Shown: positions 6,493 through 47,604 of the stretch, piece after piece
How positions within the stretch are numbered: position 1 is the stretch's first letter
How the letters are laid out: each line of letters opens with the position of its first letter
DNA from: Escherichia coli
GTDB lineage: Bacteria; Pseudomonadota; Gammaproteobacteria; Enterobacterales; Enterobacteriaceae
Length of the DNA: 64,000 nt
Reading direction: 5' to 3' (one strand)
Assembly: GCF_024700885.2 (NCBI RefSeq)
Contig: NZ_CP117014.1
Notes under the pieces: model-generated
Databases searched by the model: none
What the model was told of the DNA's origin: nothing
Seen by the model: only the letters and a program-made list of their open reading frames with translations
Translations under genes and position numbers: made by a program

Positions 6493-8190
6493 TCACTTTT
6501 TTTCGTTAACCTTGCCTGTCAGCATGTCGATAGCACCTTCTTTGGCGCGAGTCAGACGCAGGCGGGTGAAGTAGTTTTCACCGTTGCGAGGATGTACTTC
6601 GTTGATGGCACTGCCCCAGAGAGTGGTACGGTTAACGAGAGACGGATTGGTTTCGTGCACGTAAGGGATTGCTGGGACTGCATCACCAGCAATCAGACCG
6701 GCTTTACCGATGCCTTCGCCACGCCCATAGAAGAAGATGTCATCCAGCCCGAAGTCATATCCCTGTGCCTGGAATTGCTCACAGACAGGTTGCGGCACTT
6801 CGTAAATACGAATCGTGCCAAACAGGGTGCCGATGTACTGTACATACGGCGACTGAACGTAACCTGGTGCGATCTGGAAGTGCTGTGGAGGCAGAGAGCG
6901 CAGGAAGTTCGCGGCGTCACCACCAGCAAAGCCGCCACGAATACCCGTTGTCAGGGTACGATTTGCCATTTCTTGAGACAGAGCGTTTACTACGTGACGC
7001 AGGAGGCCGACCCAGGACTCATAGTTTTGAGCTTCCGGCAGAGCCACATCAAATTCACGACCATAAACGGTATGGAATACCAGGGTGCGCAGACGCATGA
7101 TGTCGGTTTCATGGGAGATCCAGTTACGCATCGCGGAGAACTGAAGTGCCGCTAATTCAAGGCCGTGCTCACGGCTTAAATCGGATGCGGACATTACCGT
7201 GTGTTCGGAAGCAATTACGTACTGGGATGGACGAACTTCGTACTTACGCATAGCCTGGTTGATCACAGGAATCAGGCTTGGATTGCGCTCGATGTTAATT
7301 TCGACCTGAACAGCAATTTCAGTACCTTCTGGCGGAGCCTGGGTAAATGTAATGTCAATGACACCAGTGTCATAGGCAACTTTGGCAGTCGCTGAGAAAG
7401 CTTTACCTTTGCTGTCTTTAGCATTGAAATAAAGGTTGCCATCGCCGTCGTCAACTTTGGACGGTTTGCGGTTGATCAGCAGTTTGTTATAACCAGCGCG
7501 AAGCGGGCAGGATTGTCCCTCAAAATTTTGGATGTCGAACTGGAAGGTTTTGGTGCTGCCATCCCCTTTAGTGGAAAGGGTATACAGGCGCTTCATTTGA
7601 GAATAAACACCAGCTGACTGCATATTCAGTTCGTCACCTTGTTTGAAGGTGCCGAATTTTGTGCCTGCTACGTTGACCAGTTCATAAATATTTGACTCGT
7701 CACGATCACAAGGAACAAAAGTACAGGCATCACTGGTAGCAGCGCCCAGAGAGGCAGGCAGAATTAGAGCAGCATATTGAGCAACTTTCATTACGCCGTC
7801 AGAGCTACGCATTGATTGCGCGACAGACTCAAACATTGCCTTACCCGTGCCTTCGTGGGTATCACTGGCACATTCAGTCATCAGGCGCTCAAGAGCCATG
7901 TGTGCGTTCGCCAGGATGTCACTTGCCGGGTAATGACCATGTTGACGTTTATACTCATGCAGAGACATAGCCCACCCACCAGTGATCTGACGAGCGACCT
8001 CTGGATTTACGCCTTCAAACATAGGCACTTTCTGGATTGCTTTATCCAGGTTTTCCATCATTACTGCCTGGTCAGCAATCATGTTGCCTGCTGCATCGGT
8101 GGTCGGATCGACGGTCATAGCCATGACGCTTGCCGCCCGATTCATAATCTCGCGCTCGCGATCACGAGCTGGCTGAATGTTTTTATTCAC
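6493..8190 (-). CDS. Large virion structural protein (565 aa), possibly major head protein
   Basis: First and largest gene of the morphogenesis operon; dispersed motif copy upstream (8317-8335); P1 gp23-like by position only. Confidence 0.35.
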   Translation of the reverse strand: MNKNIQPARDREREIMNRAASVMAMTVDPTTDAAGNMIADQAVMMENLDKAIQKVPMFEGVNPEVARQITGGWAMSLHEYKRQHGHYPASDILANAHMALERLMTECASDTHEGTGKAMFESVAQSMRSSDGVMKVAQYAALILPASLGAATSDACTFVPCDRDESNIYELVNVAGTKFGTFKQGDELNMQSAGVYSQMKRLYTLSTKGDGSTKTFQFDIQNFEGQSCPLRAGYNKLLINRKPSKVDDGDGNLYFNAKDSKGKAFSATAKVAYDTGVIDITFTQAPPEGTEIAVQVEINIERNPSLIPVINQAMRKYEVRPSQYVIASEHTVMSASDLSREHGLELAALQFSAMRNWISHETDIMRLRTLVFHTVYGREFDVALPEAQNYESWVGLLRHVVNALSQEMANRTLTTGIRGGFAGGDAANFLRSLPPQHFQIAPGYVQSPYVQYIGTLFGTIRIYEVPQPVCEQFQAQGYDFGLDDIFFYGRGEGIGKAGLIAGDAVPAIPYVHETNPSLVNRTTLWGSAINEVHPRNGENYFTRLRLTRAKEGAIDMLTGKVNEKK

Positions 8191-8348
8191 GGTTAAGCCC
8201 TAAATTCGGGCGCGGCGTGAAGGTTCTTTTGACGGGATAACAATACCTACTTTGTGATTTAGTCAATAGGTTTAGTAAAATAAAATCTATTAACACTCAT
8301 GTTGTTATGTGATTTAATTTTAGTTTTCTAACACAAATCATTAGAGTT

Positions 8349-8741
8349 ATGGCGTATCGAATCTTTGTTTCGTATAAAAATGGCGCTAAGAGCCACTCTC
8401 TGAACACAACAAGTCGCTTTCTTGTTGAGGCGCAGTTGGCATCAATTCTTGCCGAAAGTGAGATACTCTCGCTCGCTGAACGGATCGTTATCCAGTTTTC
8501 TGGTAGAGATATACTCAATGTCCCCGCTCTCACCCCGGCCTCCGAAGTTATGGAATCAATTAAATGGCCTGTATGCGGATGTCCTGCCAGGGTTGAAGAA
8601 CCGGTAACTGCAACGCTCTACATGCCGAAAGCTGTAAGAGATTGGCTTGCTATGGTTGGCAATGGGAAAGTCAGTGCTGGACTTCGCAAGTTAATTGAAA
8701 TGGCAGATATTCCTGAGTTAAAAAATGCATGGCGACAATGA
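8349..8741 (+). CDS. Hypothetical protein (130 aa)
   Basis: ORF divergent from structural operon; motif copy immediately upstream. Confidence 0.4.
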   Translation: MAYRIFVSYKNGAKSHSLNTTSRFLVEAQLASILAESEILSLAERIVIQFSGRDILNVPALTPASEVMESIKWPVCGCPARVEEPVTATLYMPKAVRDWLAMVGNGKVSAGLRKLIEMADIPELKNAWRQ

Positions 8742-42272: not shown

Positions 42273-42540
42273 ATTACAGGTGCGCGTAGATGAGCTTGAA
42301 AAAGAGAACGCGAGCCTCAAAAAAATGCTGTCGCGGGCGGAAAGGGAATTATCAGGCAAATTATTGCCAGAAGAACTGCCACCAGCAGATATACCTGATC
42401 GAGTGTCCTGGTGGATGAAGTATTTCCGTGCACCGTGGGAGGCGTTTTGGTGCTACGACCATCGCAGATGGTGTGATGAGCTTGATAGCAGTTTCCCCTA
42501 TTTTGCAGAAGGGAACTCTTGCCCTGAATGTAGGCGTTAA
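42256..42540 (+). CDS. Coiled-coil / zinc-ribbon small protein, paralog A
   Basis: C-terminal W..PWE.F.C.DH..W.DELD.SFPYF...CP.C shared with next gene. Confidence 0.4.
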   Translation: MPTKAELQVRVDELEKENASLKKMLSRAERELSGKLLPEELPPADIPDRVSWWMKYFRAPWEAFWCYDHRRWCDELDSSFPYFAEGNSCPECRR

Positions 42541-42845
42541 TGATGACCGGCGAGCTTTATTTTAAAATGGCACGGGAGCGGCGTGTGCATCTGGATCGGA
42601 TATTTCATCTCCAGAAGAGAGTAGAAGAACTGGAACGTCGTCTGAACTGTTATCCTGTTGATATGGTGTCTGCAATACCGCCGATTCCAATAGAAATGCA
42701 GATCCGCCTATGGATGGAAGAATATGGAATGCCGTGGGAGATATTTTTCTGCTTCGACCATAAACAGTGGGTAGATGAGCTGGATAATAGTTTCCCATAT
42801 TTCACAGAGAACACATGCCCAGTATGCAGGAAGAACGGAATATGA
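42540..42845 (+). CDS. Coiled-coil / zinc-ribbon small protein, paralog B
   Basis: Tandem paralog of previous gene. Confidence 0.4.
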   Translation: MMTGELYFKMARERRVHLDRIFHLQKRVEELERRLNCYPVDMVSAIPPIPIEMQIRLWMEEYGMPWEIFFCFDHKQWVDELDNSFPYFTENTCPVCRKNGI

Positions 42846-43366
42846 CAAAATTTGGAAAGCTGGAAGCTCATTTGCTAACTCGCAACTACCGCCATGATAT
42901 ACACCCATATAGACAGTGGATCGATGAAAGCGAAGGAGTAGTTACATTCCCTCTCTACAGGTTTGATGGGATGTTGGCTGGGTATCAGACATATAGACCA
43001 GGTGCACCTAAGCAGCATAGCAATCCGAAGATGGCCCGGTATTTCACGCGATCACACGGCAGACAGTTACTTTGGGGAACCTATCTTCCTTTAAAAGATG
43101 GCCCAATATGGATAACTGAGTCTATTTTTAAGAGCGCAGCTGTACACAACGCGGGCGGCAATTCGTGGGCGCTGTTAGGTTCAACTTTCTCCGCAGGATT
43201 ACGCCGTCAACTTGCGATGCTGCCGTATGACTTTCGCGTAATAGGTGACAATGATGCGGCTGGTGAATCACTTGTGAAGTCTTTCGGAAAAGGTTTTGTG
43301 GCCCCGGATCTTGACGAGCTACAACCACATGAAGTGTCTCATTTGATTTTTAGCCATAGCCAATAA
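42815..43366 (+). CDS. Hypothetical protein with Toprim-like acidic motif (start uncertain)
   Basis: ...ITESIFKSAAV...VIGDNDAAGE... resembles a Toprim E / DxD arrangement. Confidence 0.3.
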   Translation: MPSMQEERNMTKFGKLEAHLLTRNYRHDIHPYRQWIDESEGVVTFPLYRFDGMLAGYQTYRPGAPKQHSNPKMARYFTRSHGRQLLWGTYLPLKDGPIWITESIFKSAAVHNAGGNSWALLGSTFSAGLRRQLAMLPYDFRVIGDNDAAGESLVKSFGKGFVAPDLDELQPHEVSHLIFSHSQ

Positions 43367-43574
43367 GCATCTCTCCCCTTTGAGGTCACAATTAGTGGCC
43401 TTAAACAATGTGTTTTCTACCTCGATTTAGCCTTTATTATCGTTTTGCATTTCTCTAATCCGGGCAACGAGGTTACGCTGATTCGTTGGTGATGAATAGT
43501 AGCAAAGCGCACAAAATCATCTGCGGTGGTTGATGTACGTAACGCGTTTGCACCAAATGTGTCTCTTTAATGTA

Positions 43575-43594
43575 TACTGTATAAATGAACAGTA
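43575..43594. promoter_or_regulatory. LexA (SOS) box upstream of humD
   Basis: TACTGTATAAATGAACAGTA = CTGT-N8-ACAG consensus, 20 bp upstream of ATG. Confidence 0.7.
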
Positions 43595-43613
43595 TTATTG
43601 AGGTGAAAACGCT

Positions 43614-44003
43614 ATGGGCTTCCCTTCTCCTGCGGCGGACTATGTTGAAAGCCGAATTTCTCTTGATCAGCAACTAATCAGGCATCCATCAGCGACATAC
43701 TTCATGCGGGCGGCAGACAGCCATCACCGTGAGGGAATATTGCAGGGTGCTTTGCTGGTGGTTGATTCTTCGCTTACTCCAGTTGATGGTTCGCTGCTTG
43801 TGTGCGCTATGGAGGGAGAATATCGCGTAAAAAGATACCGGAAGTATCCGCGCCAGCACCTGGAGGATTTAAGCACCGGGAAGAAAGAGGCGTTACCAGT
43901 AGATGACGATGGTTACACGGGTAGTAATGCTGTTTTTGGTGTGATCACCCACATTATCAATGACGCCAGGGGCGGTGAATTTGATGATAGTCCTGCTATA
44001 TGA
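43614..44003 (+). CDS. humD: UmuD-prime-like S24 peptidase-fold protein (P1 HumD-like)
   Basis: 129 aa aligning with UmuD C-terminal domain (...LLVVDSS...GEYRVKRY...FGVITHII); SOS box upstream. Confidence 0.65.
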   Translation: MGFPSPAADYVESRISLDQQLIRHPSATYFMRAADSHHREGILQGALLVVDSSLTPVDGSLLVCAMEGEYRVKRYRKYPRQHLEDLSTGKKEALPVDDDGYTGSNAVFGVITHIINDARGGEFDDSPAI

Positions 44004-44137
44004 TTTGTTTTCAGAGAAACCATAGAGAGGCATGACTGGATCTATATCGCCCTGGCCATTTAAATGATTCCTCCCATTAGACGCGGTTACTCACTTGAAG
44101 ATAAGATGAGGTTATAATTCTCTTTTTAGGTACGCGA

Positions 44138-44560
44138 ATGAGTTCGTCTGCTTTTGTCACTGTTGTCACTGGAGTAAGCGTTTTTGTCCTAGGTCGACTC
44201 ATCATCAAGGGGGTTGAGTCTTACATTTCATTCAAGGAACAGTTGGGGGAAATATCGCATCTGTTATTGTCTAACCAAGCAAAGCTATCGAATCCCCGCT
44301 CTGACTTAAAACAAGAAATCATCCATGATTTGAAAGATGCGGCAGCACAGTTACGGGTGAAGTACGAACTATTACCTTTCTATATCAAAATGTTACACAT
44401 CGGTTTTCGCCTTGTTCCATCAGAAACTGAAATTCGTAAAGCGGCGCAAGAATTGAATCTGATAGCCTCGATACATGATGGTAAAACCGGAGAGCTGCCA
44501 TATGAGCACATAGCCAAGATTGGATTACTGCTCAGAATTCCAACCACTTATTCTGCTTAA
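44138..44560 (+). CDS. Membrane-anchored hypothetical protein (140 aa)
   Basis: N-terminal TM helix (SAFVTVVTGVSVFVLGRLII); AT-rich gene between humD and phd. Confidence 0.4.
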   Translation: MSSSAFVTVVTGVSVFVLGRLIIKGVESYISFKEQLGEISHLLLSNQAKLSNPRSDLKQEIIHDLKDAAAQLRVKYELLPFYIKMLHIGFRLVPSETEIRKAAQELNLIASIHDGKTGELPYEHIAKIGLLLRIPTTYSA

Positions 44561-44668
44561 TCCCAGCAATTGCAAGACTGCATCTCGAGGATTTAAGGCA
44601 CCAAGAAGTGGTATTCAGCATCATTAAAACCTATAATTGCGTACACATAACGAGCACACGAGGTGTTT

Positions 44669-44890
44669 ATGCAATCCATTAACTTCCGTACCGCGCGCGG
44701 CAACCTTTCTGAAGTGCTCAACAATGTTGAAGCCGGGGAAGAGGTTGAAATCACCCGCAGAGGCCGTGAGCCAGCAGTAATTGTCAGCAAGGCTACTTTT
44801 GAAGCCTACAAAAAAGCGGCGCTGGATGCCGAATTTGCATCCCTGTTTGACACCCTGGACTCCACCAACAAGGAACTGGTTAACCGATAA
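44669..44890 (+). CDS. phd: Phd antitoxin
   Basis: 73 aa from [13 protein letters not shown]...; recognised as P1 Phd; stop overlaps doc start. Confidence 0.85.
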
Positions 44891-45270
44891 TGAGGCATAT
44901 ATCACCGGAAGAACTTATTGCGCTTCATGATGCGAATATAAGCCGCTACGGCGGCCTGCCGGGAATGTCAGATCCGGGTAGGGCAGAGGCCATTATCGGG
45001 AGAGTTCAGGCCAGAGTTGCCTACGAAGAGATCACCGACCTTTTCGAAGTCTCCGCCACCTACCTGGTGGCTACGGCGAGAGGGCATATATTCAATGATG
45101 CCAATAAGCGTACCGCGCTAAACAGTGCGCTGCTATTTCTACGCCGTAACGGTATACAGGTATATGATGATCCCGTGCTGGTGGAGCTTGCAGTGGGGGC
45201 TGCAACTGGTGAAATCCCCGTATCTTCAGTAGCGAAAAAACTACGTGAACTATATGGTTCCAATATTTGA
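44890..45270 (+). CDS. doc: Doc toxin (Fic-fold kinase)
   Basis: 126 aa with HIFNDANKR Fic motif; P1 Doc-like. Confidence 0.85.
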
Positions 45271-45305
45271 AAAGAAGCCCGCTCAACCAGGCGGGCTTCT
45301 TACTA

Positions 45306-46400
45306 TCACTCAATGATTTTTTCTGCTGTCAGCCAGCTAATTTCTTGCCTGTCTTTCGGCGGTTTTAGCATGTGGGCGTATTCAGCGACATTCTCCCACG
45401 GAATTGTTTTTGCCCACTCAACGATAGCATTGTGATCTGCAGTGAAGAGTGGAATGGTGTGCGATTTCAACCATTCTAATGTCGTGACGCCATGTTTTTT
45501 GGCGTGGTGCTGCGCATGATGCCGGGCTATCACTCGTAATGGTATTGTCCATTCACTACCATCAGGCATCGAAAAGCGCATTGTCTTCGGCATATCTGAT
45601 TCAAGAACAGCCTCCCTAATACCAGGGAACTCACCAAGAATCATACGACGATAGTCATCACTATTTCGCCCGCCATACCTTTCGGCAAAATGATCAAGAT
45701 ATTCTTGGGTAATAAATGGTGAATCCTCCGCACTCAGCTTAATGGCTTTATATACACCACTCGGATTATCTTCAGCTAAAGCACGTCCATGATGTGAATC
45801 ATAAAAAAAGCCTATTTCCTCTGGTGACGGAATTGAAGTGAGCAATATGCGTGAATCACCACTAGTCATGCTTGCCCACACAATGCTGTATGCCCGATCG
45901 CTGATATGTGCGGAATCCACAATAATGAATAAAAGATGGTCGGCGTAGTGACCTGCAATGCTATCTTCATAGTTAAGGCGGAAGTTACAAAAGCACATTC
46001 CCCAAAATTCATTGAACATCAGACCGCTATCACCGACCTTAAAATACTCAATGATAAAAGGTTGTTTTTTCAGCAATGCCTCCCAACATTGCCACACATA
46101 TGCAACAATTCCTCTTTTGCAAACATTTGATTTTGGATAAACAATTACTGTCCGGGAATCAGGATACATAATCGTATAAAGGGTACTAATAACAGCAAGC
46201 ACTTGCGGTCGTCCGATCCCATACGGAGTGGTGACAGTAGCTTTTGCATTATTGGGCTGTATAGCTTCAACAATTTGTTGTTGCTGGTGGCTTAAATCAA
46301 TATCAAACAATTCTTTTGCTGCCAGTACCCAATTGTCTTTATATTTCTCCACCAGCGACAGCCAGCGCGGATCTTTATAAATATTGCTCTTAGTCGCCAT
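45306..46400 (-). CDS. PacB-like terminase large-subunit paralog with degenerate Walker motifs (365 aa)
   Basis: Collinear with PacB N-terminal half (SHQQQQI, DSHHGRA, ESPF, YGGR) but Walker A GHGTGKSS replaced by PYGIGRPQ and Walker B LDEAS by VDSAH; start ATG 46400. Confidence 0.5.
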   Translation of the reverse strand: MATKSNIYKDPRWLSLVEKYKDNWVLAAKELFDIDLSHQQQQIVEAIQPNNAKATVTTPYGIGRPQVLAVISTLYTIMYPDSRTVIVYPKSNVCKRGIVAYVWQCWEALLKKQPFIIEYFKVGDSGLMFNEFWGMCFCNFRLNYEDSIAGHYADHLLFIIVDSAHISDRAYSIVWASMTSGDSRILLTSIPSPEEIGFFYDSHHGRALAEDNPSGVYKAIKLSAEDSPFITQEYLDHFAERYGGRNSDDYRRMILGEFPGIREAVLESDMPKTMRFSMPDGSEWTIPLRVIARHHAQHHAKKHGVTTLEWLKSHTIPLFTADHNAIVEWAKTIPWENVAEYAHMLKPPKDRQEISWLTAEKIIE

Positions 46401-47157
46401 CTGCCACTTCCTTAACTTCTTCTTTGGCCTGTTCTGCAATCGCCGCACGGCATTTCGCCCTGGCTGTAGCGATTGCTTCAGCTCGCACATCGTCTGGAAT
46501 CGTTGACGTGATATACATATCCAGTTCTTCGGCACGGAATACTGTTTGGTCCAGATATTCGCGTAGCATCCAGGTAAATTCGAAATCACACGCGATAATC
46601 TCTGCGCTACCTTCTGCACCATTTGGGAAATGAATAAATGCCTGTTTAGCCAAACCGATAACACGACATGCGGTTGCCAAAACAGCGACAACTAGGTTTA
46701 CATTTTCACACGCTACGGGCTGGTTAACGCCGGAGATTACTCCATTTAACTGTCGGTTATATGGAAGGTAGTTTGAGATGCGTTCTACGCGCCATGTGCC
46801 AGTCAGGCTGCCATTTTTAAATATAATTGGTGTAACGGATAGCCCAAGCTCGCGTATAAGTCGTTGCGCTATAGCAGGATCATTAAACAGGTCTAATGCT
46901 ACACATTCGAAAGACTGCGCAAGGGCAAACAGTTCTTCCAGAGAGTAGTCTTTGCCCCTGGCGGTGATGTAACGACGAACGCCGCTGTCTGCATCACTCC
47001 ATATAGCTACGCCATGCTCTTCATTCAGCTCTTCATTAAAGCCGAGATACGTCATGATAGTGCGTTCAATCGTGTCAAACGGCAGTGACATGTCGGCGTT
47101 AACAGCCACCAGCAGGCCATTACGCAAGCGGTATTGAATTGTTTTAGTGCTTTCCAT
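46390..47157 (-). CDS. Hypothetical protein (255 aa)
   Basis: ORF overlapping paralog start. Confidence 0.4.
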   Translation of the reverse strand: MESTKTIQYRLRNGLLVAVNADMSLPFDTIERTIMTYLGFNEELNEEHGVAIWSDADSGVRRYITARGKDYSLEELFALAQSFECVALDLFNDPAIAQRLIRELGLSVTPIIFKNGSLTGTWRVERISNYLPYNRQLNGVISGVNQPVACENVNLVVAVLATACRVIGLAKQAFIHFPNGAEGSAEIIACDFEFTWMLREYLDQTVFRAEELDMYITSTIPDDVRAEAIATARAKCRAAIAEQAKEEVKEVADGD

Positions 47158-47163
47158 GTCAAA

Positions 47164-47604
47164 TCACTCCACAACAAACCAGTCACAGGCCAGCAGGTCG
47201 CCAACTGAAGGCACCCACGGAACAACTACACCTTGTGCATTTTTTAAGGCGAAATAAGCACCATACGGAACGAGGTCGCCGGGGAAATATCCCTTAATGG
47301 CTTCCATTCGTGCCGGGTACTGTCCTTCAGGAACCAGCCAGCAGAATTGGTTTTCGCCGTTCCACCCGCGTCGAGCAACTTTCTTGCCTTCCTTCAGCCA
47401 CATCAGCGCGTCTGAAAAGTCGGCTGCTTCAAGGTCGATTTCTTCTTGCTGGGTGGTGATGCCACCAGCAGAAATAGTTACGCTCCCGGTAAGATTAATC
47501 ATCACGCCGTTGTCATCCGTAATGATGACCGTGGTTCCATTTTTTTTGTGAGCTTTGTATTTGGGACGGAACTTAAAAAGCTCTTTCGTTGCCATGTTAT
47601 TCAT
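47164..47604 (-). CDS. DUF2829-like (Tad2-like) domain protein with N-terminal extension
   Basis: C-terminal half ...DALMWLKEGKKVARRGWNG...VGDLLACDWFVVE matches the DUF2829 pattern from memory. Confidence 0.5.
   Translation of the reverse strand: MNNMATKELFKFRPKYKAHKKNGTTVIITDDNGVMINLTGSVTISAGGITTQQEEIDLEAADFSDALMWLKEGKKVARRGWNGENQFCWLVPEGQYPARMEAIKGYFPGDLVPYGAYFALKNAQGVVVPWVPSVGDLLACDWFVVE

Follow-up and report, generated by a model that had tools for sequence, protein, structure and literature searches.

The window, by which we mean the whole 64,000-nucleotide stretch of Escherichia coli contig NZ_CP117014.1 that was analysed, carries a small gene, here called X, between the UmuD'-like gene humD and the phd-doc module (Table 1). 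X has the same orientation as humD, phd and doc. A reading made from the sequence alone had described it as a membrane-anchored gene of 140 codons inserted at a junction that is closed in phage P1. Key comparisons involved the junction in related phages and plasmids, the signals that could drive expression of X, the architecture of its product, and the surroundings of its relatives in other genomes.

Table 1. Positions of X, its flanking genes and signals, other genes of the same region, and the cassette-like units found around relatives of X in other genomes
Feature	Position	Strand	Remarks
Tandem paralogous ORFs, 121 and 101 aa	42175-42540 and 42540-42845	+	No Pfam match
LexA box upstream of humD	43577-43592	+	CTGTATAAATGAACAG; sole CTGT-N8-ACAG within the 64-kb window
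humD, UmuD'-like, Peptidase_S24	43614-44003	+	Left flank of insertion; ORF list, domain match, P1 alignment
Inserted segment	44004-44600	+	Adds a net 593 bp to the P1-type humD-phd junction; right edge fuzzy, about 44590-44631
Perfect TATAAT, candidate own promoter of X	44113-44118	+	20 nt upstream of ATG; no acceptable -35 at 16-18 nt
Shine-Dalgarno core of X	44128-44130	+	AGG, 7 nt before ATG
X coding sequence	44138-44560	+	ATG start, 140 aa (ORF list); equivalent of D6 orf109; PHROG 7512
Predicted N-terminal transmembrane helix of X	44150-44206	+	Codons 5-23; hydropathy; AFVTVVTGVSVFVLGRLII
Pphd	44609-44637	+	-35-like TGGTAT, 17-nt spacer, -10 TATAAT at 44632-44637
phd, PhdYeFM_antitox	44669-44890	+	Right flank of insertion; ORF list, domain match
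doc, Fic/DOC	44890-45270	+	Right flank of insertion; ORF list, domain match
ORF downstream of doc	45306-46691	-	Likely true start near 46403, about 365 aa; no Pfam match
Tad2-like ORF (Thoeris anti-defence 2-like, PF11195), 146 aa	47164-47604	-	E 5.9e-23; 2.6 kb from X
Cassette-like units around X relatives	L049, L051, L052, L057 at 7979-8535; L050 at 3653		Two cores (L050: the upstream one)

The adjacency of the flanking genes in P1, stated in the sequence-only reading, is borne out by the P1 record (NC_005856), in which the gene-free spacer between the end of humD at 87973 and the start of phd at 88046 measures 72 bp and holds Pphd alone. The P1 humD, phd and doc genes are ~95% identical to those of the window, and the -10 element of Pphd and the operator region are retained, whereas the spacer lacks the insert with X. 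On the left, high identity to P1 runs until 43993, and a weaker but recognizable match continues to the humD stop codon at 44003. On the right, identity is solid again from the -10 element of Pphd, with faint similarity from about 44590. Spans across the junction in the plasmids are 748 bp with the direct junction and 1341 bp with the insert, which yields the net gain of 593 bp.

Related elements were compared at this junction, as the earlier reading had proposed, and X proved to be missing from P1, P7, SJ46, RCS47 and JL22 and present in D6. With a 2-kb query around X, these five and others align as two pieces with the middle missing, and in P1, P7, SJ46 and RCS47 humD is joined directly to phd. 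Phage D6 is the only phage that matches the query throughout. The 651-bp middle piece of this query is 99.8% identical to D6 85848-86498; even at blastn sensitivity, nothing else in 50,697 phage records matches it. The D6 gene, orf109 (D6_109, ASR76410.1), is the same gene in the same place and is labelled 'hypothetical protein'. Because it already stands in public records under that label, the locus itself is not new, and what the analysis adds lies at the level of the family.

D6-like prophages that exist as plasmids in E. coli and Salmonella also have X between humD and phd. The complete humD-X-phd arrangement is present on 33 plasmids in PLSDB. The direct humD-phd junction was found in about 17 of 60 evenly spaced samples of 1431 matches, which extrapolates to roughly 400 records. 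Among 5426 complete E. coli genomes 21 have the insert, plasmid-borne every time. The D6-type copies of X are 99-100% identical to one another. None of the D6-like copies encountered, on 33 plasmids, in 21 E. coli genomes and on at least 1000 contigs, has a disrupted frame. A copy of the insert with 93% identity, on pSa1423-90k (L063, NZ_MK356557.1), was considered as an older lineage and dismissed: its X frame is not intact and its doc is broken, both of which are probably sequence errors in the record and not real divergence.

The X coding sequence has a GC content of 41.8% and the inserted segment one of 41.7% (computed over 44004-44631); humD has 50.0%, phd-doc 51.0% and the window as a whole 47.2%. 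The segment had been called AT-rich; its GC content does lie below that of both flanks, but the AT-richness is only moderate. Because of the lower GC content and the free-standing homologues in unrelated mobile elements, the comparison favours a gain of X in the D6 lineage over a deletion in P1. Insertion between genes that are otherwise adjacent, together with a differing base composition, is what is expected of a phage moron, and the original proposal of an inserted accessory gene is thus supported by the junction, the low GC content and the free-standing homologues.

A search of the insert edges for terminal repeats, direct or inverted, gave none longer than 10 nt, and no transposase gene lies inside the 0.6-kb segment; X of the window does not, on these features, qualify as a transposable element or insertion sequence. 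Nor do the edges of the window copy contain GTTRRRY or RYYYAAC, the core sites of attC, and so X here does not qualify as an integron gene cassette. A further candidate role, as a third component of the phd-doc module, was rejected because X is missing from P1 and from most phd-doc loci; X has no Pfam match, and its homologues elsewhere are found without phd-doc nearby.

Downstream of doc the window (45228-46700) is not D6-like, D6 having pdcA there; the segment is 100% identical in NZ_CP074704.1 and is present in 130 PLSDB plasmids. The window is thus a mosaic of D6-type and other P1-like modules. The minus-strand Tad2-like frame would, from its domain match, place an anti-defence gene in the same accessory region as X. 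Upstream of humD, the two tandem frames share the C-terminal motif PWE.F.C.DH..W.DELD.SFPYF...CP.C, and in plasmid CP058021, a 100% match, the frame just upstream of humD, probably the second of the two paralogues, is labelled 'antitoxin PHD'.

In P1, humD, phd and doc are prophage-state functions. The P1 record has a LexA site annotated upstream of humD at the place equivalent to that of the LexA box in the window. Neither the humD-X spacer nor the region 3' of X contains a terminator that could be found, and the spacer has no notable RNA structure. Read-through into X from the SOS-controlled humD promoter is therefore plausible, and transcripts could likewise run on from X into phd-doc. A sigma-70 promoter scan of 43350-45400 returned no full match. 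Since X is co-oriented with its neighbours and no terminator follows humD, its product is probably made in the lysogen, via read-through of the LexA-controlled humD transcript, a weak promoter of its own, or both.

The insertion adjoins the control region of phd-doc, which differs from that of P1. Pphd of the window has TGGTAT at -35 instead of TGGTGC and a different 17-nt spacer sequence, and two bases differ in the Phd/Doc operator region at 44632-44662 (TGCGTACAC...GAGCACAC in the window, TGTGTACAC...GAGTACAC in P1). D6 has the same changes in Pphd and operator. Autoregulation of phd-doc might differ between the D6 lineage and P1.

Hydropathy singles out residues 5-23 of the X product, whose Kyte-Doolittle mean is 2.19 and which have no counterpart elsewhere in the chain, in agreement with the one N-terminal membrane helix claimed from the sequence. 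An AlphaFold2 model of the monomer (pLDDT 83.7, pTM 0.75, from a 13-sequence alignment) has helices at residues 3-45, 59-77, 96-113 and 121-132 arranged as a four-helix bundle, the hydrophobic anchor forming the first half of the long helix 3-45. In 81 family members the stretch before the membrane helix averages 3.3 residues with 0.12 lysines or arginines, against 2.9 such residues within the 15 positions after it. By the positive-inside rule, this distribution points to an N-out/C-in topology, with a very short periplasmic N-terminus and a cytoplasmic bundle.

The membrane helix is also the best-conserved segment of the family, with a mean frequency of the top residue of 0.57 as compared to 0.38-0.43 in helices 2-4. 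Conserved residues of the anchor are T8, G12, V13, F16, G19 and Q20, followed by K24, E27 and P28; elsewhere they are L44, Q47, P94, N107, L132 and Y138. Such strong conservation of the helix suggests that it makes specific contacts in the membrane, whether between copies of X or with a membrane protein of the host. A possible oligomer or pore of the membrane helix was probed with a linker-fused tetramer model, from which no confident oligomer resulted (pLDDT 51.7, pTM 0.29); the model is uninformative because the method was improvised and the alignment has only 10 sequences. The D6 and window allele departs from the family at Q20, conserved in 95% of members, where it has R, and at P28, conserved in 98%, where it has S; it also lacks one residue after G25. 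This copy may therefore work differently or less well than its relatives. No informative structural relatives were found in PDB or BFVD, and a profile search against PDB sequences gave chance-level matches alone (E of 0.014 or higher).

X belongs to PHROG 7512: its residues 1-140 align with positions 1-141 of the 141-position profile at E 1.2e-77, and all 81 aligned relatives match the same profile. A profile built from 13 homologues and searched against 1.84 billion representatives matched 1006 representative clusters at E of 1e-3 or lower, 224 of them at 1e-10 or lower, nearly all with proteins of 135-155 aa. Five alleles of X on plasmids give pairwise dN/dS ratios of 0.09-0.46, and X compared with the nearest allele that is not of D6 type gives 0.20. 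On the strength of the pairwise ratios and the profile matches, the frame is judged to be a genuine gene under purifying selection and not a chance open reading frame. PHROG membership names the family of X without explaining its function; the source annotation was 'hypothetical' in every one retrieved for 10 representative clusters, and no paper on the family was found by accession or PHROG identifier. Neither Pfam nor NCBIfam has a family matching X or the 81 relatives. X is likewise not one of the known defence systems of PADLOC-DB 2.0, where it has no match at E of 10 or lower and the 81 relatives give just two stray matches (E ~5e-3).

Homologues with 50-75% protein identity occur on ~310 further plasmids, where DNA conservation, at about 78%, is confined to the coding region. 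The carriers include ColV-type IncF plasmids (pS88), IncFIA/FIB plasmids with X near microcin J25 genes, IncFII-type plasmids and phage-plasmids of ~47 kb. A genome scan by motif-restricted alignment detected members in Pantoea, Arsukibacterium, Marinobacter, Bowmanella, Chromohalobacter and Sinimarinibacterium and, among metagenome-assembled genomes, in Nitrospirae, KSB1, Anaerolineae, Parcubacteria and Oscillospiraceae. Among the phage isolates in the 50,697 records D6 is the sole carrier, which fits cargo of the lysogen or host better than a lytic-cycle function.

The relatives reside in several kinds of mobile DNA. In Klebsiella, Citrobacter and other Enterobacteriaceae, lambdoid prophages carry X between their replication and nin genes; it shares the strand of the repressor, and the O/P-nin-Q-lysis-terminase genes are on the other one. 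In P2-like prophages X adjoins tail-fibre genes in three loci; in one of these prophages (L029) it lies between sheath and tail fibre within a run of small membrane-protein frames, which in P2 is the position of the Z/fun gene. A distant relative sits 2 bp downstream of an ISL3 transposase gene and beside a MmeI-type restriction-modification gene, and another lies directly upstream of type I hsdR with specificity subunits nearby.

Cassette-like surroundings are found in two species of Arsukibacterium and in Marinobacter and Bowmanella, where X is flanked by GTTATAAC/GTTGTAAC cores exactly 459 bp apart; one metagenome-assembled genome (L050) has the upstream core only. In these units the upstream core stands 22 nt before a TTG start and the gene has its own AGGAG ribosome-binding site, while the stop codon abuts the downstream core, which is the start of a ~95-nt attC-like element ending in GCGTTA. 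The hairpin expected of such an element has a z score of -3.7 in L049, is less clear and weak in L051, and is absent from L057. The L049 and L051 arrays of small co-oriented frames contain IS110 transposases, and in Sinimarinibacterium X is the first frame divergent from an IntI-like integrase. The near-identical upstream core and ribosome-binding site in different genera imply cassette exchange.

Some surroundings include defence genes. In one island X is found alongside TIR_2, SprT-like, Abi_2 and DUF4238 genes, and a single DUF4238 protein is an experimentally validated defence against T7 (PMC9122126). Among 141 neighbours from 19 loci, only a type I restriction-modification set and three PADLOC candidate families were matched, with one protein each; most of the sampled neighbours are non-defence genes, and several loci resemble ordinary housekeeping chromosomal DNA. 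The defence-gene content of these sampled surroundings is modest. An all-versus-all blastp comparison of 29 loci revealed no neighbour family that recurs and hence no conserved partner gene, from which it follows that X would act alone. Together, these contexts describe what appears to be a widespread, autonomous, single-gene mobile cargo that has been repeatedly mobilised. The sequence-only reading had left the function of X blank; that can be narrowed to this family of membrane proteins.

For X itself, the reading preferred here is that of a lysogen-expressed phage-exclusion or abortive-infection protein, a tentative assignment drawn from context and architecture and given somewhat less than an even chance. 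The D6 lineage of P1-like phage-plasmids would have gained X with ~0.6 kb of DNA that entered between humD and the promoter of phd-doc. The product would be a small inner-membrane protein with a very short periplasmic N-terminus, one transmembrane helix and a four-helix bundle in the cytoplasm, the first bundle helix running on from the membrane helix. Alone at the membrane, it would exclude or abort infection by other phages. If it acts in superinfection exclusion, it could block DNA entry via an inner-membrane component; if it acts in abortive infection, the highly conserved transmembrane helices could assemble into a membrane lesion once the cytoplasmic bundle senses infection. Relatives also occur in integron-like arrays, on plasmids and in non-phage islands, and on that ground a role as a holin or in lysis was rejected.

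Single-pass membrane superinfection-exclusion morons such as HK97 gp15, T4 Imm and lactococcal Sie2009 are likewise optional genes; their small products, anchored in the inner membrane at the N-terminus, are produced in the lysogen and work there without a partner. X resembles them as a small, membrane-anchored product of an optional gene, but its main domain is predicted to be cytoplasmic, and it has no matches in Pfam, PADLOC, PDB or BFVD. Phage-resistance integron cassettes (BRiCs) provide a second comparison. About a third of them contain transmembrane helices, and one, Deva, appears to interfere with genome injection; its predicted fold is likened to the ~300-aa Brc22B and Brc23B, and it is modelled as an octamer (doi 10.1101/2024.07.02.601719). 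Relatives of X resemble integron cassettes too, but neither the paper nor its supplement offers a demonstrable homology link, and the motif of the X family does not occur in the supplementary text (doi 10.1101/2024.07.02.601719).

Extended to the whole of PHROG 7512, the proposal is of an unrecognised, widespread single-gene defence family, in which a ~145-aa inner-membrane four-helix bundle would block or abort infection by phages or other mobile elements, with the D6 copy as one instance. Such a family would spread between phyla as integron cassettes, prophage morons, passengers of insertion sequences and plasmid cargo. This broader proposal is possible but on balance doubtful.

Proximity to damage-response genes recurs in four otherwise unrelated settings. 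D6 and the window share the order hot-humD-X; in Klebsiella and Citrobacter lambdoid prophages (L038-L041, 7672-8444) a hot-like DNA_pol3_theta gene is divergent from X and 72 bp away, next to an X that is just ~39% identical; a prophage (L046, 3122-6802) has SRAP, umuC, umuD and a 193-aa frame beside X; and Chromohalobacter (L053, 5597-8525) has the order umuC-SRAP-X. Together with the position of the window's only LexA box before humD and the spacer without terminator or notable structure, this adjacency agrees with an SOS or DNA-damage factor, co-transcribed with humD, that would work at the membrane when DNA is damaged, for instance as a brake on division or respiration or as a tether or regulator of translesion-synthesis factors. 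Yet most contexts, namely the integron-like units, P2-type tail-fibre loci, restriction-modification and Abi islands, and IncF plasmids, have no SOS gene nearby, and a scan of up to 400 nt upstream of X found no CTG-N10-CAG box in 24 of 25 loci, the sole match (L052) not being the canonical CTGT-N8-ACAG. The adjacency may instead mirror shared hotspots, since variable regions tend to collect several accessory genes, and an SOS function is considered improbable. In the IncF and Pantoea copies (L005 4880-4946, L006, L007, L048) there is a conserved upstream element with the palindrome CTGTCCAGTAGACAG (CTGT-N7-ACAG), which is one base short of a LexA box and is missing upstream of the window copy. 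Integron cassettes and plasmids often carry immunity or competition genes, and the homologues found next to the microcin J25 cluster and on virulence plasmids of the ColV IncF type such as pS88, as well as the nature of X as a single small membrane-anchored polypeptide working alone, would suit an orphan immunity factor against a membrane-acting bacteriocin, microcin, contact-dependent toxin or other envelope insult. That function, too, has a low probability: a toxin or bacteriocin gene is never a conserved neighbour in the 29 loci, a predicted cytoplasmic bulk is unusual for immunity to externally acting pore formers, and the family spans phyla, including Parcubacteria and Nitrospirae, that share no bacteriocin systems.

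Two other explanations concern the phage-plasmid copy in particular. The family may be functional while the D6 and window allele is a hitch-hiking or partly inactivated copy kept between two selected modules; Q20R, P28S and the one-residue deletion bear on this, two of nine positions conserved in at least 90% of members being changed, and selection within the D6 lineage is not measurable because the D6-type copies are so nearly identical. Still, the frame is intact in all D6-like copies noted above, dN/dS against the nearest other allele is 0.20, and the two substitutions, R at the edge of the membrane and S in place of P, are mild enough to be tolerated, which makes a decaying passenger quite improbable. 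Alternatively, X could serve the phage-plasmid itself as a counter-defence or entry-helper factor, as might be thought from the Tad2-like anti-Thoeris gene at 47164-47604 and from locus L042, where a KlcB/SSB block, as is typical of plasmid leading regions, lies next to X. But X points away from those KlcB/SSB genes, as it does from the early operons in lambdoid prophages, it is missing from all sequenced phage isolates but D6, and promoterless integron cassettes in bacterial chromosomes are no setting for phage counter-defence. A counter-defence role is accordingly rated very improbable, and exclusion or abortion of infection by other phages remains the preferred reading.

Phage-plasmids related to D6 and P1 are frequent in E. 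coli and Salmonella, where they move traits from strain to strain; their optional genes, and what these do for the host, bear on phage therapy, P1 transduction and plasmid ecology. The locus of X is an ordinary one, an annotated hypothetical gene at a variable junction, and its usefulness lies in the family behind it. That family is small in product, self-sufficient and under purifying selection, numbers about a thousand clusters in several phyla, and has been captured repeatedly by integrons, prophage hotspots and defence neighbourhoods. It would thus be a cheap and well-defined candidate for a defence or superinfection-exclusion screen.
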